Shown: in pieces, positions 2,339-14,717 of the stretch
Layout of the letters: the number at the start of each line of letters is the position of its first letter
Position numbering within the stretch: position 1 is the first letter of the stretch
IMG/VR virus record: IMGVR_UViG_3300014970_000025
Source of the DNA: a virus
Taxonomy: Duplodnaviria; Heunggongvirae; Uroviricota; Caudoviricetes
Length of the DNA stretch: 15,433 nt
Reading direction: 5' to 3' (one strand)
The notes under the pieces: model-generated
What the model saw: only the letters and a program-made list of their open reading frames with translations
Told to the model about the DNA's origin: nothing
Databases searched by the model: none
Translations under genes and position numbers: made by a program

Positions 2339-2384
2339 ATTCGTAATGCGAAGGTCGTAGGTTCGACTCCTATTATCGGCACCA
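2339..2384 (+). repeat. thrW: 3' 46 nt of tRNA-Thr(CGU) gene (anticodon loop to CCA): attachment-site core / direct repeat; not a complete tRNA
   Basis: ATTCGTAATGCGAAGGTCGTAGGTTCGACTCCTATTATCGGCACCA matches, from memory, the 3' part of E. coli thrW (T-arm GGTTCGACTCC, acceptor 3' strand, CCA). The 5' half (GCCGATATAGCTCAGTTGG...) is not present upstream, so this is a partial copy, as left at junctions of tRNA-integrated elements. Confidence 0.75.
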
Positions 2385-2989
2385 TCAAGAAAATCAATAA
2401 CTTAGCTTAACTTCTCTAAGAAATTGTATCTTCTGTTATCACTTACAAACGCCTATACGTTGTTATGGGCTTTGGTAGTGTAACACGTATGGGCGAGTAG
2501 TTCCCAGGCTCAACCTCGTAACAAGTTCCTTTGAAGCTGGAAGACGTGCCACCGTCTCTAAACCTTCTACCAAAACTCTTAGCAAGATGTTCCACACCTG
2601 GCGCGGTGTCCAATGATGCTACACGTCGTGAGACGTTGCAGAGGATAAACAGGCTAAATGATGGGAAGAGTTTTAAGTGCAATAGTGGATTAAAGCCCAC
2701 CTCTTCAAAACCTAACTTGATCGGGAAAGAATCAAGCTCTAGCACGGTTTCGTCCACCGGAGTACAACGGGTGCCTGATAAGAGAAGAACTGCTAAGACT
2801 TCATAGCTTTTGTGAAAAAGCCCTTTTTAGTGGATACGCCTACGGCGCTTATTTTTTGGTATAACCATCAAAGGCGCTTTATGGCTCCTATTGTCTTGAA
2901 AATGTATCTTTACTTGTATTGTGTTTTATGCGTAGTCTCCCTGTGTAGTATGTAACTTGTTAATTTTCATATGAATACAGAGGCAAACG

Positions 2990-3148
2990 ATGAAAAACAT
3001 TGCAGCTATCAAACGTAATAACCGCAAGATTCACGCTCGTAAGTTCCTGTCTACGCCAGAAGGAAAAGCCTGGCTAGAGCGTAAACAGAGAGAGAACGAA
3101 GAAAGAAAACTCCTTAGTGAGTTGAAATGGCTTAGAGAGGATTTCTGA
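2990..3148 (+). CDS. small basic hypothetical protein (52 aa; MKNIAAIKRNNRKIHARKFLSTPEGKAWLERKQRENEERKLLSELKWLREDF)
   Basis: ATG at 2990 preceded by GAGG about 7 nt upstream; below the 60-aa cutoff of the ORF track. Lys/Arg-rich and helical in character. No recognised family. Confidence 0.4.
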   Translation: MKNIAAIKRNNRKIHARKFLSTPEGKAWLERKQRENEERKLLSELKWLREDF

Positions 3149-3309
3149 AAATCTCCAGAACGCAACAGGGCGCATTCTAACGCTGTTTTCATTGCTTGGT
3201 ATAGGGATTATAGGTGATGTGTGTTTAATGCGTCTGTGAGCTTTTTTTGTGCCTTATTTTGCATTTTCATAATGCAGGAGAGAACACGGAAAGCCTTAAA
3301 ATTAATTAT

Positions 3310-3480
3310 TGGGGTATTTAAGGCTATTTTTAGGTGATTTAAGGGTATTAAACTTGATTTAATTGGTTAAAATATAAACAGATAGTTGTGTATCTTATTG
3401 GTTTATAAGGTTATTTTTAAATAAAGGTAAATAAAAAATAAATACCCATAAATAGCTATAAATACATCTAAATACCTATA
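3310..3480. repeat. iteron-like repeat arrays in AT-rich DNA (candidate origin or regulator-binding array)
   Basis: Three ~20-21-bp spaced units (G/T)ATTTAAGG(G/C)TAT at ~3314, 3335, 3355, with a related unit at ~3401; then TAAATA at 3428, 3439, 3449 and 3459, 3469 with exact 10-bp phasing for the last four (ATAAATACCC / ATAAATAGCT / ATAAATACAT / CTAAATACCT). Confidence 0.55.
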
Positions 3481-3491
3481 TCCCCTCCCTT

Positions 3492-3875
3492 ATGGCTAGA
3501 TTGCGAGAGGTGCTTAACGCGATTTTCAGCGCCCCCCGATCTGGAAAATCCAGAATCCCCAAATATCAGCAAGGAATTTTCTTGCGTAATCAACATCGTT
3601 TTTACCTATTAAATCATTACACAGAAAGCCTTTCTGTAATGTCTCTCACTAAACTTTCACTAAACACGAGAATGATCGGTTTTATGTCGGATCAGATGCT
3701 AGAAACAGCACCACGTCTCACAAGGGCTGTAAGCGATGAAACCAGTGTTTATGCGGGTGCAGGTCAAAATATAGGCCAAAATCCATTTAACATAATAAAC
3801 GTAATATGCACTAAGGAACACATAGAACGCCTTGAGTTGATGTATCAGGGGAAAAGTGGTGGATTTTTTACGTAG
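3492..3875 (+). CDS. hypothetical protein (127 aa), doubtful
   Basis: ORF present in track but no Shine-Dalgarno (ATG preceded by CCCCTCCCTT), composition unremarkable, no recognisable domain. May be non-coding. Confidence 0.25.
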   Translation: MARLREVLNAIFSAPRSGKSRIPKYQQGIFLRNQHRFYLLNHYTESLSVMSLTKLSLNTRMIGFMSDQMLETAPRLTRAVSDETSVYAGAGQNIGQNPFNIINVICTKEHIERLELMYQGKSGGFFT

Positions 3876-3894
3876 GAGCACGAGAGGGCTTCTA

Positions 3895-3922
3895 TTGACT
3901 TTTGTATGCTATGAAATATAAT
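3895..3922 (+). promoter_or_regulatory. near-consensus sigma-70 promoter (TTGACT-N16-TATAAT)
   Basis: TTGACT at 3895-3900 and TATAAT at 3917-3922, 16-nt spacer; directs rightward transcription into an ORF-poor region. Confidence 0.5.
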
Positions 3923-4356
3923 AGAAGGTTTTTATTTTTATGTTGATAGTGATTGCACATTAAAGATTGAAAGCAAATTTAAACATAAATTTTCAACACG
4001 TGAAAGAAACTTGTTCGACAAATAATAGATTGATTTTTAATCAACAATTTCTGATAGTGCTCTGTAAGCCGCATTACACAAGGCTTTGCGAAAGTGATGT
4101 AAAAGTGAAGAAAGCTAACATTGCTCTTTTAAGCCACTTTTCATTGAATTTTTAGTATGGAATTACATAGGGATTAATCATCAATTACATTGAATTTAAG
4201 CCTGTTTTAGATAGCAAGAAACACTTTTACTGATTATAAGAAGATCATTGCACAGATGTTATGTGATGGATGTAACGGTAGGTCACTGTGAACTATCCCC
4301 TACAGAATTTTGTTACCTATTAGATCAACTATCAAACTACAATTAAATTATCTTTT

Positions 4357-4576
4357 ATAAATTCTTTTATCTTTAAAGAATAATTATAGGGATACCCGTT
4401 GGATGTAACGATGGGTTACATCGGCAGATGACCGGGGGGGTCGGTCACGATGACCGGGGGGGGTCGGTCACGATGACTGACAATAAGATTACTTTAATAA
4501 TACTAATAATAAAACTAACATCTATAATACTAATAAATTCTTTTATCTTTTAAGAATAATTATAGGGATACCCGTT
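4357..4576. repeat. 44-bp direct repeat pair (43/44 identical) flanking a hairpin and tandem G-tract palindromes
   Basis: DR1 4357-4400 and DR2 4533-4576: ATAAATTCTTTTATCTTT(A/T)AAGAATAATTATAGGGATACCCGTT. Between them: hairpin GATGTAAC-gatgg-GTTACATC (4402-4422); tandem units GATGACCGGGGGGGTCGGTCAC (4427-4448) and GATGACCGGGGGGGGTCGGTCAC (4449-4471), each containing the palindrome TGACCG-N7-CGGTCA; partial third unit 4472-4480. Confidence 0.8.
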
Positions 4577-4581
4577 AGGGG

Positions 4582-4655
4582 AGTCTAACGACTATCCCTT
4601 AATCTATTGGCATTCGCCAGAACCTTGCACAAGTTAGAGTGTTAGTCGTTAGACT
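4582..4655. repeat. 12-bp perfect inverted repeat AGTCTAACGACT / AGTCGTTAGACT separated by 50 bp
   Basis: Arms at 4582-4593 and 4644-4655. The core CTAACG recurs at 4823-4830 (TCTAACGA) and in a bulged hairpin GCGTTACCCC-ttt-GGGGatgcTAACGC at ~4889-4914. Confidence 0.7.
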
Positions 4656-5183
4656 GCTTGTCATAACACATAGTTTTTGTTTGTTGATGTTAGTTAGTAG
4701 ATCTATGTTCGCTAATGCCGCTCACAACGAATATGTAATCTACTATGTGCAAATAGCCTACGGCTTGCGTAAGGCTAAATAGTCTTGCGCTGTGCGCAGA
4801 ACGATAATTAACTAACTACCATCTAACGATCATCAATCATCTAAAATAAATTTCTTGTGCAATGTTCTTGCGAATGCAATTAGGGTAGCGTTACCCCTTT
4901 GGGGATGCTAACGCATAACTATAGATCAACCATCAAACAGACAAAAAAGAAAAATATGGTTTAAAGATGTTAGGTAGTAGATGAGTTTCTACCGCTTAAA
5001 TCAAGCCGTAGGCGAGCAAAACAACCTCTACATAAGGGAATGTATTGTTTTTATCAAAATCTCGTCAGAATGCGTTTTAGAGCGTTTTAGCGGATAATGA
5101 AGAATAGCACCACACAGGAGAGCACGAATTGATAAGAAAAAATGTAAGCGCATGAAAAAGATCAGGTTTTTTATGAAAAGGTA

Positions 5184-5212
5184 TTGACAAATGTTTCTTT
5201 ATATGTAATAAT
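5184..5212 (+). promoter_or_regulatory. sigma-70-like promoter (TTGACA-N17-AATAAT with upstream TG)
   Basis: TTGACA 5184-5189, TGT then AATAAT 5207-5212; sits ~120 bp upstream of the first gene of a + strand gene cluster. Confidence 0.5.
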
Positions 5213-5330
5213 AGGTATTAAAGGGACAGGAAAATATTCTTATCCTCTAAGTAATTAAACCAATGCACCGCACTTTGAAGCCCAAGGCTTGCAAGGTGTC
5301 TATTTCTTTTAACTGAATAAGGAGTTTTTT

Positions 5331-5513
5331 ATGAAATGGTTTACATCGGAACGCGTCGTAGAGGCATTTAAAAAAGGTGAGCTAACACGACATCAAATAG
5401 TAATGAATCGTAATATGGCAAGGAGTCGAGGTTATCCAGAGCGTGAAAAATGCTTTGACGATGCACTAAAAATTATTGATGAACTGCGTAAGGCAGAGGC
5501 AGAGAAAGAATAA
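5331..5513 (+). CDS. small hypothetical protein (60 aa)
   Basis: Strong SD (AAGGAG, 6-nt spacing) before ATG 5331; product MKWFTSERVVEAFKKGELTRHQIVMNRNMARSRGY..., no family recognised. Confidence 0.55.
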   Translation: MKWFTSERVVEAFKKGELTRHQIVMNRNMARSRGYPEREKCFDDALKIIDELRKAEAEKE

Positions 5514-5534
5514 TAACAAGAGAAGGAGAAAACT

Positions 5535-5705
5535 ATGAGCGAAACTACAGAAAAGAAAAGACAACCACGCACTTGCTTTCATATTCCTGATGAAGTATTT
5601 CAGGTGTTATTTAAAGAAGCAAGAAGTAAACGTATCACTGTTACAGATTACATTCTTGATATGTTGAAAAGAGAGGCTGAAACACTCTCAAATAAAAGCA
5701 AGTGA
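5535..5705 (+). CDS. Arc-like ribbon-helix-helix (RHH) DNA-binding protein (56 aa)
   Basis: SD AGGAG before ATG 5535; below ORF-track cutoff. CFHIPDEVFQVLFKEARSKRITVTDYILDMLKRE aligns by eye with P22 Arc (FNLRWPREVLDLVRKVAEENGRSVNSEIYQRVMESF): beta-strand followed by two helices, RHH pattern. Confidence 0.65.
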   Translation: MSETTEKKRQPRTCFHIPDEVFQVLFKEARSKRITVTDYILDMLKREAETLSNKSK

Positions 5706-5759
5706 TTTTTATCACCATAGTAGCGCCGTAGAGCGTGATTACATACAGGAGATTTTTTA

Positions 5760-6386
5760 ATGATTAACCAACCAACTTTTACAAAACACTATGACACGTT
5801 CGATAACATCTCGAAGATTTACTCTGATAAATTGCCTCAAGGAAAAGATTTAGAGCTATTACACATTGTGCTTTATTTTCGATTTCTTAGTTATCAGGAG
5901 AACAATCTTAATTGTTACGAAAGTCACGAGACATTAGCTAAGATTTTTAAGGCTTCGGTATCAACGATTCAACGTAAGATTAAAGATCTTAAGGAGATGG
6001 GGTTATTAGATACATCCCCGCACTCTGATCCTAACATTACATCCCTTGTTTATACTGCTCTCCCTCTCACAGATGCACACATTACACCACCGGAAGACGT
6101 GAAATTCGCTGTAAACGTAGAACGGGCTGCACCTGAATATCAGGAAACATTAGAAGCGACACACTCTATTGAGCAGGAAACACAGGAATCAGCGTTCCCT
6201 GAGCGGCCCGAAATTTTTACTTGGCTTCTTTCCCTTGATAAGAAGAAACCACCACACGAAGAAACAGAAGATTTTGTAAAACGAGCATTAGATTCAAAGA
6301 ATATCTATCTTTGTGAAAATGATTTTGACTCTTTGATAATTGATCTCAAAAGTGAGAGCACAATATATGATTCACTACCCTTCTAA
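5760..6386 (+). CDS. winged-HTH DNA-binding protein, replication-initiator/organizer-like N-terminal domain (208 aa)
   Basis: SD AGGAG before ATG 5760. N-terminal LLHIVLYFRFLSYQENNLNCYESHETLAKIFKASVSTIQRKIKDLKEMGLLD follows the pattern of phage/plasmid Rep-type winged-helix domains; C-terminal half acidic and unassigned. Confidence 0.7.
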   Translation: MINQPTFTKHYDTFDNISKIYSDKLPQGKDLELLHIVLYFRFLSYQENNLNCYESHETLAKIFKASVSTIQRKIKDLKEMGLLDTSPHSDPNITSLVYTALPLTDAHITPPEDVKFAVNVERAAPEYQETLEATHSIEQETQESAFPERPEIFTWLLSLDKKKPPHEETEDFVKRALDSKNIYLCENDFDSLIIDLKSESTIYDSLPF

Positions 6387-6521
6387 GGAGAATAAATGAC
6401 TTATAACATCACAAACAATCAATAACAACAGATCGGGCAATACATATGGCAAATGCATTTATGGCGATATTCATCGTAACAATGGCATTCAGTTTTTATA
6501 ATCCACATAAAAAGAGGGAAA

Positions 6522-6905
6522 ATGGGAAGAAAGAAGAAGAACAACTTAAAACGTATTGAAAAAAACAGTAACTTCAATTCAACAAGACAACGTCCACCGA
6601 CACACACCAATAACGAAATTCCAGGGGAAGAGATAATATTTATTCTTGAAACAGAATCCCCTGAATTAAGCGATGAAGAATTAGAAATAATCCAGTCAAT
6701 GCCAGGCGTTTACTTTCGCCCAAGAACAAGAAAACAAACTATCATTTCTGATGGCACTCTGAAACGTTGGCAGCTTTTAGGGTTTAGCTCCTATCATCAT
6801 TTTTTGGGATTTAACGCTTTCAATAATTGTGTAGGTGGTGCATCGGAAGTCGATCTGATGGCTCATTTAGAAGATACATTAGCTTCTAACAAACGTTCTA
6901 ACTAA
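6522..6905 (+). CDS. hypothetical protein (127 aa), basic N-terminus and acidic middle
   Basis: SD GAGGG before ATG 6522; no family recognised. Confidence 0.5.
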   Translation: MGRKKKNNLKRIEKNSNFNSTRQRPPTHTNNEIPGEEIIFILETESPELSDEELEIIQSMPGVYFRPRTRKQTIISDGTLKRWQLLGFSSYHHFLGFNAFNNCVGGASEVDLMAHLEDTLASNKRSN

Positions 6906-6920
6906 TAAAATGATGGGCGT

Positions 6921-7166
6921 ATGTATAAGCGCCCAATGAAAATATTCAAAAAAGGAAAAATAATGATTGGCTATATTCAAGAAACACAATTATTTCAGAT
7001 GATCCTGTCTGATGCAAAAAACTATGCTGAGTTAATCCGACTGGCAAAAGAAACAGAAGACTACGAAGCATTAGAGCGTTATCGTGATGAAGTGCTGACG
7101 CTCAAGACACCTTTTAACATCGTATTGAATATGATTAATGATGCATTACAAGGAGAAGCCGCATAA
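6921..7166 (+). CDS. small hypothetical helical protein (81 aa; alternative start 6963 gives 67 aa)
   Basis: Internal ATG 6963 has the better SD (AAGGAAAAATAATG). Stop overlaps the next start (TAATG at 7164-7168), suggesting translational coupling. Confidence 0.45.
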   Translation: MYKRPMKIFKKGKIMIGYIQETQLFQMILSDAKNYAELIRLAKETEDYEALERYRDEVLTLKTPFNIVLNMINDALQGEAA

Positions 7167-7474
7167 TGGAAGAAGATATTAGCAATGCAATGGAACAACT
7201 TTTAGATCTGACTATCTCACTACAAACAAGAATAAATCAAGCCTATTCAGATTTATGTGATTACACGCTCTCTCAATGCGTTATTAGCTTAATGAAGGTG
7301 AATGTAAGCCTTGACGATTTTATCTCTCTGGTGAGCGATTTAGAGCTATCAGAGGACGATGCAAAACAGTGTAATCAAATCATCACAGACATCGCCACCA
7401 CGTTAAAGGTTGCAAGTGAAGAGATTCAGCAATTAGTAGATGATTTAGCAAAAAGTGCTATTTTCTCTAAATGA
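7166..7474 (+). CDS. acidic helical hypothetical protein (102 aa)
   Basis: Start overlaps the upstream stop; product rich in D/E/L/I; no family recognised. Confidence 0.55.
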   Translation: MEEDISNAMEQLLDLTISLQTRINQAYSDLCDYTLSQCVISLMKVNVSLDDFISLVSDLELSEDDAKQCNQIITDIATTLKVASEEIQQLVDDLAKSAIFSK

Positions 7475-7487
7475 TAATGAAAATTAT

Positions 7488-7516
7488 TTGCATTTATAAT
7501 GATTTTGTTATATAAT
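7488..7516 (+). promoter_or_regulatory. near-consensus sigma-70 promoter (TTGCAT-N17-TATAAT)
   Basis: TTGCAT 7488-7493, TATAAT 7511-7516, plus a second TATAAT at 7495-7500; followed by ~0.9 kb without any + strand ORF above ~25 codons. Confidence 0.5.
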
Positions 7517-8401
7517 AATTTTAGGGGTAGATAAAAAGATTTTAGTTGGTGTTAATCCTTCTACTGTCATAAATCCCTGCATATGGAAGGTGATAGCCTC
7601 AAAGGTTGAGTGGCATTAACCTCTAACAAATATTACCTTCCATCTCTCAAGAAGTTTTAGAATAATCATAACTCCCTCTTTGATTGTTGATTGTTTCTAC
7701 GTTGTGTTGATGAATGTTGTTAGGCATTGTGCTTAATTTTGATAAAAGCGGGTAGGTGTTATCTCCTTGCCCTTCCCGCTCTTATTTTTCATCTATGCTT
7801 ATCCTAAAGCTCCTTATTTTGTCCGAAAACATTAAAGAGCCTTACACTGATAGTTATATTTTATAACTATTTACTAACATCATTAAACTCTTATTTAATG
7901 ACGGAAGTTAGTAACAGAATAATCTATTAAGTTGTTGTCAAAAAACTATCATCTGCATAGCGTTAGCCGCAAGTAGAGAGAGTTTAGCTAAGAATGGTGC
8001 AATAAACTTTGGAAATATTGATAGCAAAACGGGTTTTATAGAATGCGGATCTATAAGCTTTGGTTGTAAAAACGATTTTCTGAAACGGTAGATTACTGTT
8101 GGTGTAGTTAATCCTATTAAAATTTGATCTGTGAGTAGATTAGAATTGGAATAGTGATTCCTTAAAGCCTTACTTTGTTGCATCCACAGCAAAAACAGGC
8201 AGCGGTTTAGCCCCCGCATCGAATAGCAGGATCGTAGATTCCAAAGGGTTGGCCCCTCCTAAGAGCCAATTTCTCCTGCGGTCCTGTTATTCACCCTTAA
8301 CATATCTCTAAGCGTATTTATAAAAGTATTCTTAGAGATAACGTTAAACCTCCTCAAAGTTGACTTATCACAATATGTATTTTGCCCGATACAAAATAAA
8401 T

Positions 8402-8452
8402 AAGCCCCTTGCTATTGTTGATTGAACCTCTTATAGCCTGGGGCTTTTTATT
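8402..8452 (+). terminator. stem-loop followed by T-run (possible intrinsic terminator or RNA 3' structure)
   Basis: AAGCCCC (8402-8408) pairs with GGGGCTT (8440-8446), followed by TTTTATT; loop is long (31 nt) so classification is tentative. Confidence 0.3.
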
Positions 8453-8480
8453 ACTCGGAACATAACGGAATCGTTATTTT

Positions 8481-8690
8481 ATGAAACAAGAAATTATCCT
8501 GAAATATGGCAATGAAAAGTTAACACTAACTGAGGATGTGTTGAATGCTACAGCCTACGCGCTTGGCATCACTCCTACAGAATTAAAGAAACAGTGTGAA
8601 CGTCTTTATAAGGCTGACAGCAATAAACCATCTCACCAAGATTTGATTAATGCTAAAGCTCAACAAATCAAACAATCTAAGGAAAAATAA
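8481..8690 (+). CDS. small hypothetical protein (69 aa), possible HTH-like segment
   Basis: Stop overlaps the start of the next gene (TAATG at 8688-8692). Segment ATAYALGITPTELKKQ is HTH-like. No family assigned. Confidence 0.5.
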   Translation: MKQEIILKYGNEKLTLTEDVLNATAYALGITPTELKKQCERLYKADSNKPSHQDLINAKAQQIKQSKEK

Positions 8691-9064
8691 TGGCTATTTT
8701 AAAATTAAGCGATGTTTTCCCACATCGTAAAAGCATCACTGACGTAGTGAGCTATGCAACCGACCCTTACGCGGCTGTAGAAAGCAAAAAATTTGCAGCA
8801 CTTGCACAAGATGTAACGTGCGGCGACCTCATTGATTCATCCGGCGCTAAATATGTTAGCGGCGCTGATGTTCTTGTCGTTGTGTCTGACTTCGTAACTG
8901 CTGATTCAAATAAAACAGTTAACGTGCTTCGTGCTAATGCCGGACTCGTTTGCATCAAAGCTGATGCCCTGAATGCCGAAGGCGCTGTAAAAGAAGCTGC
9001 TATTGCAGCTCTCGCTGCTAAAGGCTTCCAGCTTGAAGGCTTCCACTCTGTTTTCACATCTTAA
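8690..9064 (+). CDS. putative head decoration protein (lambda gpD/SHP-like position and size, 124 aa)
   Basis: SD AAGGA; lies immediately upstream of an E-like major capsid gene, as D does in lambdoid head modules; size typical; Ala/Val/Gly-rich. Assignment rests mainly on synteny and composition. Confidence 0.45.
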   Translation: MAILKLSDVFPHRKSITDVVSYATDPYAAVESKKFAALAQDVTCGDLIDSSGAKYVSGADVLVVVSDFVTADSNKTVNVLRANAGLVCIKADALNAEGAVKEAAIAALAAKGFQLEGFHSVFTS

Positions 9065-9080
9065 GAAGGAATAAATAATA

Positions 9081-10109
9081 ATGATTATCGGAAATGAAGT
9101 GGTTGATCTTGCTCCACTGTTTGAATTAAACGATACCCGTAACTATCTGCTGTCTACTCTGGATTTTACTGATCCTGTGCCTGTAGAAAGTCACAAAGTG
9201 GCTGTTTCCCAGCTTATCGAGAGCAATGAATCTCTGTTCAACCATCCTACAAGCCGTTTTAGCTCTGAGCATAACGTTACTAAACGTGAAAACGCGGAAG
9301 AGTGGCTGATTGAAATTCCTTATTTCCTGCGTGAAGACCTGATCACACCGCAGGACGTGCAAGGCAAACGAAAAGCCGGAAGCTCTATTGAAGAAACACT
9401 GCCGGATCTGTATGCGGAATATATCGCTAAACACAATGTTGCATTCCAGCGCACTAAAGAAAGCATCCTCGCGGCTTCTCTGTTCTCTGGCAAGACGCAT
9501 ACCCCGAAAACTGACGATGTTCTGATCGACTACAGCACTCTGTTCGGTGTGTCTCCAATGACTGCAACCGTTGACGCATCCAGCACCAACACAATGACTG
9601 TGTTCAAACAGTTTGACCAGATGCATACGGATATGATTGCTAAAGCACAAAGCCAGGCTGCAACCATTGAGCGTGTTGTTGTGTTCTGTAAGCCTGCGGC
9701 ATTCAACGCTATTCGTTACAGCGTTGGCATGGTTAATGCGTTCCAATATGCAAGCCCTGTAGACGATGCAAACGTGGTGTTTAATGTGCGCTCTCTGCTG
9801 CCTGGTGTAACTACTTTCACCATTCCAGGAACTAACATTGATCTGATCAAAGTGACTGATCCGCTGCTGCTGGCACATATGACCGCAGACGCTGTAGCTG
9901 TTCCTAAATTCGCTAAAGGTGCAGGTGTTTACCAATCTATTTATGGCGCTCCTTCCAGTTCCTTCGATCTGCTGTCTCAAGGCGCTAAAGAGTATTACAG
10001 CTATGCTTTCGAATCGAATCGCGGCGACGCAGTGCACGTAGTGACCGAGAATAGCTCGCTTGTGGTTAACCACGGTGTTGGCTTCTCTGTGCAGATCACA
10101 GTAGCGTAA
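9081..10109 (+). CDS. phage major capsid protein, lambda gpE-like family (342 aa)
   Basis: SD AAGGAA; length nearly identical to lambda gpE (341 aa); C-terminus ...VVNHGVGFSVQITVA resembles gpE ...DPDEFVSVQLA and internal ERVVVFCKPAAFNAIRYS resembles gpE NIIVFDPKGWALFRSF (by recall). Confidence 0.8.
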   Translation: MIIGNEVVDLAPLFELNDTRNYLLSTLDFTDPVPVESHKVAVSQLIESNESLFNHPTSRFSSEHNVTKRENAEEWLIEIPYFLREDLITPQDVQGKRKAGSSIEETLPDLYAEYIAKHNVAFQRTKESILAASLFSGKTHTPKTDDVLIDYSTLFGVSPMTATVDASSTNTMTVFKQFDQMHTDMIAKAQSQAATIERVVVFCKPAAFNAIRYSVGMVNAFQYASPVDDANVVFNVRSLLPGVTTFTIPGTNIDLIKVTDPLLLAHMTADAVAVPKFAKGAGVYQSIYGAPSSSFDLLSQGAKEYYSYAFESNRGDAVHVVTENSSLVVNHGVGFSVQITVA

Positions 10110-10273
10110 AAAGTGTTAAAGACGTTCCCCTACGTCTGGAAATAATCGGGGGGCAATAAGGGTAAGGAGATTAACTAACCTGTAGGCGCAAATACAGTAA
10201 CGAATCTCTTTGCCCTTTTTGTTTTTCTACTGTCTACAAATCCAAATAAAAATATATATGTGAGAGAAAACCA

Positions 10274-10471
10274 ATGAACACAGAAAATTCACAGGCATTA
10301 ATTCTTAAATCTGTAAAAGAACTGGCAGCTATTAGCGATGACTCAATAATCAATGTCAGTGCCTTATGCAGAATGCTTTCAATTGATGCAAATAATGTGC
10401 GGCAGCGTGTGTTTCAGACCGGGTGCAGCACTTTCGAAGCAATCCAATATTATTGTTCTAAAAAACAATAA
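10274..10471 (+). CDS. small hypothetical protein (65 aa)
   Basis: Weak SD; segment VSALCRMLSIDANNVRQR is HTH-like; uncertain. Confidence 0.35.
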   Translation: MNTENSQALILKSVKELAAISDDSIINVSALCRMLSIDANNVRQRVFQTGCSTFEAIQYYCSKKQ

Positions 10472-10505
10472 CAAACAACAATCATAATACAGGGAAACAA
10501 TCAGT

Positions 10506-12347
10506 ATGTTAGAACTAAACGTGGCACGCCTCTCGAACGTTGTCACCTTCGAAGTTAACCGACCATCATTAGAGAAAGCAAAAGCAGAAGTAGAAAAACT
10601 TCGTAAACAAATGGCGGCGGTGAAAGATATAGAATTGCGTGTTAAGACACATAAACAATCAACCGCTAAAGCAAAAAAAGACGTAGACGATATTGCTAAA
10701 AAGCAAGCACAGGCAGATAAAGCCAATGCTAAAGCACAATTAGCCGCTCAACGTGTAGTTGCAAGAGAACAAAAAGCCCTGGCAGCACGGAAAGAGAAGG
10801 CTGAATTAAAGCTTTTAGACGTTGGAGCAAGCATTAGCGCATTGCACCGTCTTTCTGTAGCGGAACAATATAAAGCTATTGCACAGGCTAGAGAAATTGC
10901 CCTCCAATATGAAAGAGGCGCTATTAGTCTGGCACGTATGAATAGCCAAATGAAACGCCTACAACAGCAACAACGTAAGATTAATGGCAATCGTAACGCT
11001 CACGCTAAAGCCTATGCACCTGTTAAGGGTAGCGGGAGTATTGGCGGCGGTGCTGCGGCTGTTATGCTGGGTGGCTTAGGCGCTGGCGCTGCATATATGG
11101 CTATGAGCAAAGCTTCTGAATTTGTTACTAACAGCTTTGCGAATGCTGAAACGCTGGGAGAATTGTATAGCCGTGCGAAGCTGGGCGGTGTAGACGTTAA
11201 CCAGATGAACAATATTGAGCAATGGGCGTATAAAAACGGCGTTGATTCAATGATGGGGGATCAAGGTAAACGTAAGTATCTCGATCAGATGAAAGATGTG
11301 CGTGAGCGTGCAACCAAAAGCTATGATGAGGCTGAATATGTAGTCGATAAAAAAACAGGCAAAGGTGAATGGAAGGGCGGCGATAGCGGCATCAACGTTC
11401 TCATGAACGAAGGATTCTTAACTAAGAAAGATTTGAAAGACTTTGCTGATAATCCTGCTGGCCTGGTTAGTAAAGCAGTTCAGGGAATGGTAGCTAAAGG
11501 CTATTCAGATGCACAAATCGGTAGTCGTCTTGAAGACTTGGGCGATGATTTGATGCTCACCTCTAAATACTGGACACGCTCCGCTAAAGAAGTGGAACAA
11601 TCAGCACGAGAACAACGAGAATCAGGGCGCTGGGTAACACAGGCACAACAGGAAAGCGTTATTAAATTCCGTGAACTGAATAATGCACTTAGTGGGCTTT
11701 CTGACTCACAAGGGATCGCCTTTGTTGATGGCTTTATGAAATCTCTTGATCCGAAAGTGATTGAAGAGTTTAAAAAGAGCATGGTTGCAATGCTGCCAAT
11801 GTTTACCAAATTAGGCGAGGCTATCGGCGGATTGGTTAACGCTGTAATGAAAGCAATCAACTGGCTGATGAAAAACGACGAGAAGACGGCAGCTATTCAG
11901 AAGAATTTAGGTGATGCACCGCCACTATCTAACGAAGGAATGAAGCAGAATCTTTCTAATCTCACTCCTGATCAATATAAAGGCGCTGGCACCGGAACAA
12001 CTAAGCCAGATAACAGCAATTCCCTGGTTAACACTATTAAAAGCTGGTTTATGCCAGAAGAAACGGTAGGTGGGGCGCAGGCTGTAAATCAATACAGTCT
12101 CGAAGGACAAAACATTGCAAATCTGAAACAGAGTGCAGCACAACAAGCTTTCAAGGCTCCTTCTTACACCTTTGCACCTGTTATTAACTTCAATCCAGAA
12201 TTACAAGTAAATGCAGAAGTGCCGCTAACTATCGAATCAGACACCGGACGATTGAGCGAATTTATCGACTTCAAATCAAAGGCATCCTCCGCTGAGTTTA
12301 GCAAGCTATTAACGCTGGGTGTTATGTCAGGCGGGTCAACCTATTAA
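10506..12347 (+). CDS. tape-measure-like protein: long Lys/Ala/Gln coiled-coil N-terminus, Gly-rich hydrophobic segment, large C-terminal region (613 aa)
   Basis: Residues ~20-170 are heptad-like charged helix (EKAKAEVEKLRKQ...KAQLAAQRVVAREQKALAARKEKAELK), followed by GSGSIGGGAAAVMLGGLGAGAAYMAMS (membrane-like). This architecture is typical of phage tail tape-measure or ejection proteins. No enzymatic motif seen. Confidence 0.5.
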   Translation: MLELNVARLSNVVTFEVNRPSLEKAKAEVEKLRKQMAAVKDIELRVKTHKQSTAKAKKDVDDIAKKQAQADKANAKAQLAAQRVVAREQKALAARKEKAELKLLDVGASISALHRLSVAEQYKAIAQAREIALQYERGAISLARMNSQMKRLQQQQRKINGNRNAHAKAYAPVKGSGSIGGGAAAVMLGGLGAGAAYMAMSKASEFVTNSFANAETLGELYSRAKLGGVDVNQMNNIEQWAYKNGVDSMMGDQGKRKYLDQMKDVRERATKSYDEAEYVVDKKTGKGEWKGGDSGINVLMNEGFLTKKDLKDFADNPAGLVSKAVQGMVAKGYSDAQIGSRLEDLGDDLMLTSKYWTRSAKEVEQSAREQRESGRWVTQAQQESVIKFRELNNALSGLSDSQGIAFVDGFMKSLDPKVIEEFKKSMVAMLPMFTKLGEAIGGLVNAVMKAINWLMKNDEKTAAIQKNLGDAPPLSNEGMKQNLSNLTPDQYKGAGTGTTKPDNSNSLVNTIKSWFMPEETVGGAQAVNQYSLEGQNIANLKQSAAQQAFKAPSYTFAPVINFNPELQVNAEVPLTIESDTGRLSEFIDFKSKASSAEFSKLLTLGVMSGGSTY

Positions 12348-12357
12348 TCATCACTGT

Positions 12358-12373
12358 GGGGCTGTTTAGCCCC
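12358..12373 (+). terminator. GC-rich hairpin GGGGCT-gttt-AGCCCC with weak U-tract
   Basis: Perfect 6-bp stem, 4-nt loop, 10 nt after the stop of the 613-aa gene; followed by CTTAAAT rather than a strong T-run. Confidence 0.35.
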
Positions 12374-12394
12374 CTTAAATAAGGATTACAAATT

Positions 12395-13072
12395 ATGGCA
12401 ATGGGTCCGTTAACCATTGGTCGCCCGACTGAGGCGAAAATCAACAGCACAAGCAACGATAGCAACGGTAGAACAACCAAAGGGGGTAACGGCTTTGCGA
12501 TCATTGCCTCTAACCTCGGCAGTGGTGCAAATGCTGCTTACAATGACTACCAGGCATTATCATTTGATAGCGTGGAATCGACGAAAGTTAGCAGAAATGC
12601 GGACGTTACAAGCTATGCCGTCGAATCAGGATCAGAAGTTAGTGATCATGTTCAAATACGGAATAACAAGTTCACATTACAAGGGCGTATCTCTGAAACC
12701 GTATTGAAGCTCAATCCCGATATGATTAAGAATGCGGGAATTAACGGCAATAGACGTATGCTTATGCTTGAATACCTAAATCAGTTGATGGACAGTCGCC
12801 AACCTTTCCTACTTGTCACTGAGTTAAAAAATTATGACAACGTTGTGTTAGTTGGCATGTCTTACGAAGAAGAAGCAAGCGAAAGTATATTGTTTACTCT
12901 TGATTTTGAGCAAATTCGTCTTGTCTCTAAGGCCACCACTAATGCTATTGCTGTAAAAACAGCACCAAATAAATCTGTAGGGGGACAGGTTAAAATGCAG
13001 GTAAATACAACAGAACAGAAAAATCAAAAAAGCCCAGGGCAAGACGTTGTAACACCAGTATTTAAACAATAG
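12395..13072 (+). CDS. hypothetical protein (225 aa), Ser/Thr/Asn-rich N-terminus; possible virion-associated protein
   Basis: SD AAGGA 9 nt upstream; follows the tape-measure-like gene; no family recognised. Confidence 0.6.
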   Translation: MAMGPLTIGRPTEAKINSTSNDSNGRTTKGGNGFAIIASNLGSGANAAYNDYQALSFDSVESTKVSRNADVTSYAVESGSEVSDHVQIRNNKFTLQGRISETVLKLNPDMIKNAGINGNRRMLMLEYLNQLMDSRQPFLLVTELKNYDNVVLVGMSYEEEASESILFTLDFEQIRLVSKATTNAIAVKTAPNKSVGGQVKMQVNTTEQKNQKSPGQDVVTPVFKQ

Positions 13073-13153
13073 CCTTAAACGCCTATGAAACGCTCTGTAA
13101 CGATGTAATTATAAAAGAGGCTACCAATCTATGTTGAAGCCTCCTTATTACGT

Positions 13154-14488
13154 CTATGGCGTTGTTTTACGCCTTAAATTTGATTTTTTATTGATTGATA
13201 AGCCTTTCTCTATTTCAGGGTAGCGTAAAAGCTCAATATATTTTTTAAGCTCTACTGGAGAAGCTGCATTTTTGCTATATGTGCGGAATGTTTCTGTATT
13301 GCCGCGTGTATGGCCCAGGAGAAGGGCGATCCTGTCTTCTGGAATTTGATTTCGATCAAGAAGCTGTGCTACTCCGTGTCTCAGAGAATGAAACACTTTC
13401 CTTTCTGTTCCCTTTTCCCCTAAAGCCTTTCGTTTAGCTCTTGTAAATCGTTGTGTATGCCACGTAGAGCGTTTACCGTCAGCACGTTCTGTAATGCTGG
13501 CGTGATAGAACAAAAAGCCATTGTGAGGCTTTTCACGCAGCGACAACACCAACGGAGTGATAAGGCTATGTACAGGCACAACACGTGCCGCTGCTTTCGT
13601 CTTTCCCTGTGTGATTTCAAAACACAGCACACCTTCGATCTCTTTCACATCGTCTATTGTGAGACTTGCTATCTCATTGATCCGCATACCTGTATATAAA
13701 CCGATAAGACACAAAGCCGTCATTTCTTTGTTTTCTGCTGAATTACCGGAAAATACTTGCAACACCTGCAATAGCTCTTTGTTAGAAAATGCCTCGTAGC
13801 TCTCTCTACTTTGTGCCACATCAAGCCTATGCCCTCGCCAGGGGGAGAGCGCCCTTTCTGGCGCATCGTGGTAACGTGATGAAGCTAACTCCCATAGCTG
13901 GGCCATTGGGCTGATATAATTTGCAATTGATTGTTGTGAAAGAGTTTTTTGCATGTGTTCAATCCAGCCTGTAACAGTGGTGCGGCTTACGTCTTGCAAT
14001 GCAATATCAGGCTTTTTACGGTAGGAGAGAAACATCTCTACCGCTTTTCTTGCCTTAGCTAAAGTGGCTGGCTTCTTCTTCGTGCTGTTAATTGTCAGGT
14101 AGATTTCAAGAATTTTAAGCAATGACGGACACGAAGACGCTGTATCTTGCATTCTGGTAGCTGTTTTGGCGTATTTAGCCTTACTGCGTAACAGTTCCAG
14201 CGTGTTTTCTATTGTGCTGTTTACAGGGGCAACACTCTCCCGTAAGCAATGGTATTCATCTGCAATCTGATCACGCTTTCTACGTGCAACACGAAGATTA
14301 CTTGTGTGCAGACTTCTGACAAACGTCCTTTTTCCTTCAAAAAAGGGCTGCATATACACAGGCAGCGTGATCCTTAAATAGTAGTTACCGTAAGAATCAC
14401 AGATTAAGTATTGGTTAGGCTTGTATCTCATAAAATCTCCGGCTAAAGTGTCGGAGCGTTTGTAATGTGAAAATTGATTGTGACGCAT
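13154..14488 (-). CDS. tyrosine site-specific recombinase (phage/P4-type integrase, 444 aa; alternative start at 14431)
   Basis: Catalytic-domain motifs TGMRINE (Arg), HSLRHGVAQ (His-x-x-Arg), LLGHTRGNTETFRTYSK (His, Tyr nucleophile); N-terminal YLRITLP...FFEGKRTFVRSL typical of tRNA-site integrases; lies adjacent to a tRNA-Thr-derived repeat. Confidence 0.9.
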   Translation of the reverse strand: MRHNQFSHYKRSDTLAGDFMRYKPNQYLICDSYGNYYLRITLPVYMQPFFEGKRTFVRSLHTSNLRVARRKRDQIADEYHCLRESVAPVNSTIENTLELLRSKAKYAKTATRMQDTASSCPSLLKILEIYLTINSTKKKPATLAKARKAVEMFLSYRKKPDIALQDVSRTTVTGWIEHMQKTLSQQSIANYISPMAQLWELASSRYHDAPERALSPWRGHRLDVAQSRESYEAFSNKELLQVLQVFSGNSAENKEMTALCLIGLYTGMRINEIASLTIDDVKEIEGVLCFEITQGKTKAAARVVPVHSLITPLVLSLREKPHNGFLFYHASITERADGKRSTWHTQRFTRAKRKALGEKGTERKVFHSLRHGVAQLLDRNQIPEDRIALLLGHTRGNTETFRTYSKNAASPVELKKYIELLRYPEIEKGLSINKKSNLRRKTTP

Positions 14489-14528
14489 AGAAAATGATTA
14501 TTTTTCTATAAGATTCAATCAATTAGTA

Positions 14529-14591
14529 ATGGTCGTAGGTGATGGCATTAACACGAGATTAATCGAGTGTTTTACTCCTATTATCGCACCA
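14529..14591 (+). pseudogene. degenerate tRNA-Thr 3'-end copy (ptwF-like att remnant)
   Basis: GGTCGTAGGT (14531-14540) ... ACTCCTATTATCGCACCA (14574-14591) matches the thrW 3' end except for a ~33-bp insertion replacing the T-loop and one missing G; same orientation as the 2339-2384 copy. Confidence 0.6.
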
Positions 14592-14717
14592 TTAAAATCA
14601 AAGAGTTACCCCATATTTAAATACACCACGTTTCCTCCTGTGCCGCATTTGTGCCATTGTAACCTTGGCAATTCATCAAAATACTGTTCTGACATCAGGC
14701 AGTGCAGGTGCAGCTAT

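Follow-up and report, generated by a model that had tools for sequence, protein, structure and literature searches.

Lambdoid phages differ in the specificity of their origins and O initiators, and iteron plasmids such as P1, F, R6K, pSC101 and RK2 combine repeats of ~17–22 bp, set at a period of ~22 bp, with an AT-rich region and a winged-helix Rep; the plasmid iterons are direct repeats bound by Rep monomers, usually together with DnaA boxes, and extra iteron sets can act in control. SaPIs bring their own initiator, a helicase-type Rep, with island-specific iterons, an AT-rich tract and an ori just downstream of rep. In ori-lambda, four 19-bp imperfect inverted-repeat iterons (six in Stx phages) stand beside an AT-rich tract, and two iterons plus the tract are enough for unwinding (PMC7466680). 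In the PLE satellites of Vibrio cholerae the origin iterons lie in non-coding DNA and are matched to the N-terminal domain of the initiator, the two being swapped together between elements with C-domains that cross clusters; the lytic phage ICP1 encodes Odn, a RepA_N-like domain fused to T5orf172; Odn cuts these iterons and is considered a driver of the swapping seen in the PLE replication module (PMC8263062). Here we describe a 15,433-nt stretch of viral DNA (IMG/VR record IMGVR_UViG_3300014970_000025, called the window throughout) holding an island of ~12.25 kb, in which a 44-nt direct repeat closes each of two modules lying in DNA free of open reading frames (ORFs), about 3900–5330. We regard these as probably being two tandem, heterologous origin modules of a satellite-like Escherichia coli island, whose arrangement would record a replicon swap.

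The locus shares features with each of these systems. With SaPIs it has in common an island-encoded candidate initiator, here called Rep, island-specific iterons and an AT-rich tract, and it differs from them in the type of Rep, in the position of the modules relative to rep and in having no sequence relationship. Unlike the iterons of plasmids, the island units are dyads, and no DnaA box accompanies them in 3900–5330. The likeness to ori-lambda and O lies in tandem imperfect inverted-repeat units directly next to an AT-rich tract and in an initiator candidate whose type-specific DNA-binding domain is N-terminal and distinct from the C-terminal domain; in contrast to lambda, the modules lie ~1.2 kb upstream of rep and are heterologous and in tandem, Rep falls below the Phage_rep_O model, and an SSB-tip-like tail appears to replace a P-like loader. 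As in PLE (PMC8263062), the units occupy non-coding DNA, match the N-domain of the putative initiator and seem to have been swapped with it between elements while C-domains cross clusters, and lytic phages carry an initiator-like DNA-binding domain fused to a T5orf172-type nuclease. Here, however, the candidate initiator is an HTH_36 winged-helix protein rather than a RepA_N protein, host and phage family differ, old and new origins would be kept in tandem, and each coliphage protein joins two unlike island N-domains one after the other. As we read it, the module resembles a lambda-type iteron origin and the PLE replicon and belongs to neither family.

Architecture of the Tandem Modules

A sequence-only reading of the window had pointed to two near-perfect 44-bp repeats 176 bp apart, and a recount confirmed both coordinates and identity: the copies, at 4357–4400 and 4533–4576, agree at 43 of 44 positions (98%), lie 176 nt apart from start to start and enclose an interval of 132 nt. 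A 22-mer from the repeat, with up to three mismatches allowed, finds two sites in the window and none in 200 shuffles. The repeated entity is larger than 44 bp: modules 4267–4399 and 4400–4575 each start with TGGATGTAAC and each close with the 44-mer, and the direct repeat exists because both modules end in the same AT-rich and left-arm sequence. A T7-like promoter in the 44-mer was considered and rejected; TATAGGGATACC resembles the T7 initiation region, its upstream part is mismatched, and the motif occurs only in the 44-mers and at one unrelated site. The comparisons below draw on about 60 related loci (prefixed L) gathered from E. coli genomes, IMG/VR and metagenomes, together with contigs on which Rep homologues are encoded. 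The features of the modules and of rep are as follows.

4267–4399, no strand: module 1, presumed vestigial origin module, with a gamma-like dyad, one alpha unit, an AT-rich stretch and 44-mer copy 1
4280–4294: gamma-like dyad AGGTCA-CTG-TGAACT in module 1
4297–4315: single alpha unit CCCCTACAGAATTTTGTTA in module 1
4357–4400, no strand: 44-mer copy 1, the distal AT-rich part and left palindrome arm, ending at the junction CCCGTT/GGATGTAAC
4400–4576, no strand: module 2, intact beta-type module, the presumed cognate of the resident Rep
4402–4422, no strand: hairpin or epsilon-like dyad GATGTAAC-GATGG-GTTACATC, 8-bp stem
4442–4456, no strand: beta iteron 1, dyad CGGTCA-CGA-TGACCG, with a G7 spacer (4434–4440) in front
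4465–4479, no strand: beta iteron 2, dyad CGGTCA-CGA-TGACTG, with a G8 spacer (4456–4463) in front
4480–4566, no strand: AT-rich tract, presumed DNA-unwinding element
4533–4576, no strand: 44-mer copy 2
4555–4608, no strand: imperfect palindrome, core 4564–4599 AGGGATAcccGTTAG-GGGAGT-CTAACgacTATCCCT, whose left arm is the end of the 44-mer
5184–5212, plus strand: sigma-70-like promoter TTGACA-17-AATAAT with extended -10, upstream of two small ORFs and rep
5760–6386, plus strand: rep, a 208-aa HTH_36 winged-helix protein

Module 1 holds one alpha unit where alpha-type relatives have 4–5, followed by a stretch (4309–4388) of 83.8% A+T. Because its 44-mer stops at CCCGTT/GGATGTAAC, module 1 has no right palindrome arm; the same junction recurs in L044, L047 and L053–L055. 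In module 2, the 88 bp of 4479–4566 directly adjoin the beta iterons and are 84.1% A+T, and 4485–4564, at 87.5%, form the most AT-rich 80 bp of the 15.4-kb window. Dyad iterons followed by an AT-rich tract are the layout of ori-lambda, and for this reason each module is read as a candidate origin. A scan of 3900–5330 gave just one match to the IHF consensus, at 4035.

The 8-bp-stem hairpin and the two tandem 22/23-bp G-tract units that the same reading had placed between the repeats are present. The hairpin at 4402–4422 folds as single-stranded DNA with −6.4 kcal/mol (z = −5.9); it resembles the GTAACG-ATn-CGTTAC units of epsilon-type islands (L016–L018, L022 and L023) and is probably a relic unit. 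The tandem array (4427–4477) has a period of 23, 2.3 copies and 96% matches, the dyad centers of beta iterons 1 and 2 are 23 bp apart, and a degenerate beta copy, CGGCA-GA-TGACCG, lies at 4422–4434. What did not hold was the register, since the units had been described as inverted repeats around a poly-G tract. Single-unit relatives (L006, L031, L043 and L044) retain just a G-run and CGGTCA-CGA-TGACyG, so that the conserved dyad is CGGTCA/TGACCG centered on CGA, the G-run is the spacer between dyads, and the TGACCG-G7-CGGTCA inverted repeat is a by-product of the units standing in tandem.

The palindrome at 4555–4608 folds with −10.8 kcal/mol (z = −3.5). It carries a compensatory double change (A4568G/T4595C) in L053–L057 and perfect 14-bp arms in L032, L039 and L042, and in L039 and L045 the loop is inverted (ACTCCC, not GGGAGT) between otherwise perfect 14-bp arms. 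Taken together, these variants suggest that the palindrome may extrude or be copied as a hairpin, and the flip-flop of the loop suggests the kind of change expected if a palindrome is copied or resolved in that form.

Such folds could also act in a transcript, as an antisense or copy-control RNA or as a leader or primer RNA, and a G-rich RNA hairpin array had been among the first proposals. Single-stranded DNA of the region does fold more stably than shuffles (z = −5.2 for 4400–4482 and −3.5 for 4550–4612), one palindrome change is compensatory, and the strong promoter-like site at 3895–3922 points into the ORF-free stretch. Against this, no Rfam match reaches the gathering score anywhere in the window and none that is relevant appears at E ≤ 5 in 3300–5800, variants with one unit have no second arm with which a hairpin could span the G-tract, and uncompensated mismatches occur in gamma units as well as in the second beta unit. 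The number of units (1–5) and the length of the G-run (6–10) vary freely, and symmetric changes are equally expected for sites bound by dimers. The hairpin array finds no support, and we consider a structured RNA very unlikely.

Cassette Types, Gain and Loss among Related Islands

In nearly all of the ~60 loci the 44-mer closes a recurring module, made of 1–5 dyad-symmetric units at a period of 22–24 bp, then an AT-rich tract and then the palindrome; the diverged subfamily L058–L060 has the same layout and no 44-mer. At least five types of cassette occupy the same position.

Alpha unit: C-run plus ACAG-N4-CTGT-type dyad
Beta unit: G6–10 plus CGGTCA-CGA-TGACyG
Gamma unit: G5 plus AGGTCA-CTG-TGAGCT
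Delta unit: GGAA-ATGAG-TTCC
Epsilon unit: GTAACG-ATn-CGTTAC

A search of other genomes had been proposed to learn whether the internal segment is mobile or variable in copy number. The segment is present or absent among relatives, and beta units occur in one to four copies with G-runs of 6–10. L001 and L002 have a single 44-mer and lack the 132-nt insert, L006 has three modules, and L048 is L047 minus its beta module, removed by an exact deletion between two 44-mers that leaves a window-type Rep with a delta module only. The precision of this deletion indicates that the 44-bp direct repeat is recombinogenic, and recombination between its copies may be a route by which a module can be lost. The junction CCCGTT/GGATGTAAC follows an intact epsilon module in L044 and an intact delta module in L047 and L053–L055; its presence after differing modules indicates that the beta module spreads as a cassette and is set distal to a pre-existing, putative origin. 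In the tRNA-Gly islands (L005, L006, L019 and L031), the beta module lies upstream of one or two delta modules and Rep is of delta type. The judgement that the arrangement is not CRISPR-like agrees with these loci, which have at most two to three copies of the 44-mer and intervals filled by cassette types common to many of them.

An inserted cassette with duplicated flanks had also been suggested, and an insert that is present or absent between relatives and bracketed by direct repeats would suit a mobile cassette like a miniature inverted-repeat transposable element (MITE) with target duplication; a packaging (cos/pac) site would likewise be unrelated to replication, and the island must be packaged while no terminase gene was recognized in it. 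The insertion itself is borne out by L001 and L002 and by the pair L047/L048. Its identity as a MITE is not, as terminal inverted repeats were not found at the insert ends and the 44-bp "duplication" is part of the neighboring module rather than a target-site duplication; the insert is better read as a second origin module of the island family. Among 5426 complete E. coli genomes 11 match the insert, each at a single place, and the inspected loci have it at the same relative position in related islands. In a scan of genome contigs the 22-mer was found in two records only, one from E. coli and one a metagenome-assembled genome labelled Bacillota, which is probably contaminated. Cassette type also tracks the N-domain of Rep, as shown below, and of the explanations weighed here a MITE or packaging site is the least probable.

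Cassette Type Follows the Rep N-terminal Domain

Rep consists of a variable winged-helix N-domain (~aa 1–105, 5760–6074), an acidic linker whose disorder is read from a low-confidence AF2 model, and a small helical C-domain that exists in several unrelated versions. The cassette nearest rep matches the type of the Rep N-domain in 39 of 40 loci, the single exception being L048. In 100,000 permutation trials the number of concordant loci averaged 9.2 and never exceeded 22, short of the observed 39; this comparison sets an upper bound on significance, because the loci are not phylogenetically independent.

The left flank of the delta-type locus L012 is identical to that of the epsilon-type L022, and that of the gamma-type L008 to that of the epsilon-type L018, while the right flanks are 98–99% identical across cassette types. 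The C-domain alleles C1 and C2 are found with alpha, gamma, delta and epsilon N-types, that is, with every N-type seen in several loci, and one N-domain is found with at least four C-domains. Linkage by itself does not account for a match between cassette and N-domain when flanks and C-domains are shared across types in this way. The N-domain of the window Rep, with the recognition region KASVSTIQRKIKDL, recurs in other assemblies (P0001, P0005 and P0093) fused to different C-domains, and on independent contigs (L039–L045, L047, L049–L050 and L053–L057) it is accompanied by beta units beside conserved downstream sequence; at ≥90% identity it is absent from the 5426 complete E. coli genomes.

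Similar domains also go with similar sites. The gamma and beta N-domains are 73–87% identical, their dyads are akin (AGGTCA-N3-TGAnCT and CGGTCA-CGA-TGACCG), and the intermediate Rep allele P0095 pairs with AGGTCA-TGG-TGACCT. Dyad symmetry together with co-variation with one DNA-binding domain of the island makes the units very probably protein-binding sites. The co-variation further suggests that iteron specificity resides in the Rep N-domain, and that origin and initiator N-domain are exchanged between elements as one module.

Replication Origins or Operator Arrays

The tail of Rep, YDSLPF (the last six codons, 6366–6383), resembles the C-terminal tip of SSB. Acidic-(I/L)PF endings such as YDSLPF, YDSIPF, DFDIPF or EEDDFDIPF close 105 of 120 Rep homologues, whose C-domains are of at least four unrelated kinds, and a final PF is frequent in remote relatives. 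The SSB tip itself is DDDIPF and docks replication partners (PMC5872125), a resemblance from which we infer, speculatively, that Rep recruits host factors. In Pfam, Rep has HTH_36 and generic helix-turn-helix matches only. Ten of its 12 PHROG matches are to replication-initiator, O-like or DnaD-like families, with a best E of about 1e-6, the "replication initiation O-like" families matching at E 4e-6 to 6e-5; remote relatives match DnaD_N. No helicase, primase or other initiator was recognized in the island by Pfam, PHROG and NCBIfam searches, nor is there a gene for a P-like helicase loader.

Co-varying dyads would equally be expected of a transcription regulator "Rep" with operator arrays, the two modules then being two differently regulated promoters that may drive a non-coding transcript through 4577–5180 or a leftward transcript. 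The dyad symmetry of the units and their co-variation with a winged-helix protein fit this explanation, as does the NCBI annotation of the protein as "transcriptional regulator", and a minus-strand match, TAGACT-17-TATAAT at 4587–4559, overlaps 44-mer copy 2. A scan of 3400–5800 for sigma-70 promoters and terminators, however, showed no enrichment (9 promoter-like sites against 9.0 expected in shuffles), and the minus-strand match, the only one inside the 44-mer, has its −35 in the palindrome center, which varies between loci. An 88-bp tract of 84–87% A+T beside the sites, the initiator-family PHROG matches, the SSB-tip-like tail and the lack of another recognized initiator fit an origin better than operators, and we consider the operator explanation unlikely. 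Of the tandem operator pair first suggested, the dyad sites that co-vary with an island DNA-binding domain stand; they are best read as origin iterons rather than as transcriptional operators.

Under the origin reading, Rep would contact the iterons with its variable N-terminal domain, dimers being most likely because the iterons are dyad-symmetric, and would open the adjoining AT-rich tract; the conserved (I/L)PF tail of Rep would probably serve to recruit host replication proteins. Module 2 (4400–4576 with the palindrome to 4608) would be the working origin, its two beta iterons matching the resident Rep allele, and module 1 would be the remnant of an earlier alpha-type origin that was cut from 4–5 iterons to one and lost its right palindrome arm.

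Several points weigh against this reading. A transcription factor with operator arrays would yield the same co-variation, to which the phylogenetic non-independence of the loci and the exceptional L048 should be added. The modules lie outside the initiator gene, unlike the origin of lambda, and no DnaA box with up to one mismatch was found in 3900–5330. The similarity of Rep to known initiators is weak, as it falls below the Pfam models Phage_rep_O and RepA_N. Its AlphaFold2 model is poor (mean pLDDT 55, pTM 0.31, from a 17-sequence alignment). The beta module of the tRNA-Gly islands is an orphan, the genomes that carry it lacking a cognate Rep at ≥90% identity. Further searches with Rep gave nothing meaningful in PDB sequences and nothing above cut-off in NCBIfam, and an exhaustive search of representatives ended in a narrow family of 37 clusters that did not reach annotated initiators.

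The Island and Its Surroundings

The island extends over about 2339–14592, its right end being set by the attR core repeat CTCCTATTATCG, a 12-mer that occurs exactly twice and recurs at 14575–14586. Features recognized beyond the modules and rep are the following.

2339–2385, plus strand: attL, 3' part of tRNA-Thr (thrW), left end of the island
9081–10109: gpE-like major capsid protein
10506–12347: tape-measure-like protein
12395–13072: Dit-like protein
13154–14488, minus strand: tyrosine integrase

ARAGORN predicts no tRNA in the window; the tRNA-Thr is present as a 3' fragment only, and no terminase gene was recognized in the island with Pfam or PHROG. Related E. coli islands adjoin proA and tRNA-Thr (thrW), and a sister family sits at tRNA-Gly near actS. 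Among the contigs checked for terminal overlap none had one, and there was thus no sign of a circular or excised form. The ORF-free region that holds the modules matches 733 of 5426 complete E. coli genomes at 80–95% identity, with insertions and deletions.

The left flank (1–2338) is atypical of the proA/tRNA-Thr site in carrying an AraC-family regulator (832–1584) and transposase remnants, as strain 401651 does (L003). Within the island, a tandem 10-bp repeat, ATAAATACCT, in 4.3 copies (3438–3480), lies directly upstream of the ORF at 3492–3875, and the promoter-like site at 3895–3922 (TTGACT-16-TATAAT, 11/12) is directed into the ORF-free region. The ORF-free DNA of 4600–5180 is 87–99% conserved and rich in hairpins and long-range inverted repeats, among them 4604–4633 with 4854–4883 (30 nt, 87%) and 4756–4767 with 5002–5013 (12 nt, 100%). 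It contains repeated blocks of ~100 nt that begin with (T/A)TGTGCAA and include GCGCTGTGCGC, of which L001 has one more than the window; the DNA of 4600–5180 may hold single-strand initiation signals or specify a non-coding RNA. Another ORF-poor stretch, about 1 kb long, lies at 7475–8480, and 7468–7547, at 84% A+T, is the second most AT-rich segment of the window.

Chimeric Phage Nucleases and Candidate Helpers

A tblastn search with Rep against 50,697 phage records returned one match, in phage inny. Lytic Stephanstirmvirinae phages encode proteins in which two island-type Rep N-domains stand in tandem ahead of a nuclease, the domains being 87–99% identical to those of island Reps.

inny_184, 367 aa, phage inny (Justusliebigvirus, MN850601.1), L066:2414–3517: epsilon domain (87–88% over 140 aa), delta domain (89% over 93 aa) and a T5orf172/MUG113-type endonuclease
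QNJ49226, phage Mt1B1_P17 (Phapecoctavirus), L067:514–1500: alpha domain (99% over 105 aa), delta domain (88%) and the same nuclease as inny_184
muut_154, phage muut, L068:328–1326: a further winged-helix type, delta domain (89%) and the same nuclease as inny_184

Phage BI-EHEC has a match similar to QNJ49226 of Mt1B1_P17. The C-terminal part of the chimeras matches the PHROG 681 endonuclease (E = 4e-18) and, at its cut-off, Pfam MUG113, the match to T5orf172 being weak. No beta- or gamma-type domain was found by tblastn in any of the phage records, and none of the five cassettes by blastn.

Other links lead to the same phages. The island Dit-like protein is 54% identical (86% coverage) to a Phapecoctavirus/Justusliebigvirus protein, and the proteins closest to the island capsid protein include, alongside those of many Pseudomonas phages, the major head protein of phi92/Phapecoctavirus (24% across the full length). 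Both similarities point to Phapecoctavirus/Justusliebigvirus-type phages as helpers. A 46-bp stretch at the start of the ORF 3492–3875 (3495–3540) has counterparts of ~96% identity in about 50 phages of 145–150 kb, members of Justusliebigvirus and its relatives; phage Antha has it amid tiny ORFs, where the same frame would encode ...ARLREVLNAIFSAPR..., as in the island ORF.

The chimeras are built like ICP1 Odn and hint at an arms race over origin sites, and the data suggest that the islands are satellites of Stephanstirmvirinae phages whose iteron cassettes are under attack. We put forward, tentatively and as a real possibility, the joint reading that these islands are an undescribed E. coli counterpart of PLE–ICP1, in which ~12-kb satellites of phi92/rV5-like (Stephanstirmvirinae) phages have their origins cut by chimeric "origin-directed" nucleases. 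These nucleases would be made from Rep N-domains that phages captured from satellites (alpha, delta, epsilon and a further type), and under their pressure iteron cassettes and Rep N-domains would be exchanged jointly. The tandem in the window would record a swap to beta specificity, carried by no collected phage, with the alpha origin decaying. Rep would start replication although the island supplies neither helicase nor primase, its SSB-tip mimic recruiting host proteins that interact with SSB, such as PriA, DnaG or the chi subunit. A literature search found no description of this island family, of a Stephanstirmvirinae satellite or of an Odn analogue outside ICP1, a weak negative given its incomplete coverage.

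Significance

If the origin reading is right, the repeat is a snapshot of a mobile element changing its replication specificity: a new origin cassette would have been inserted beside the old, the matching initiator domain swapped in, and the old origin left to decay or to be deleted through the 44-mer. The satellite-like island family occurs in roughly one in seven E. coli genomes (733/5426) and would offer a testable system in a host with easy genetics. With its five or more interchangeable iteron/initiator specificities, it would lend itself as a natural series to work on the evolution of new DNA targets in winged-helix proteins, and a putative initiator with an SSB-tip-like tail hints at an unusual route of replisome loading. 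Lytic coliphages of therapeutic type (Phapecoctavirus and Justusliebigvirus) appear to carry counter-weapons aimed at the island origins. A wider arms race over origins between coliphages and satellites would, if confirmed, be of high interest; origin-directed nucleases would then be a general phage strategy and not a peculiarity of ICP1, with a bearing on host range in phage therapy.

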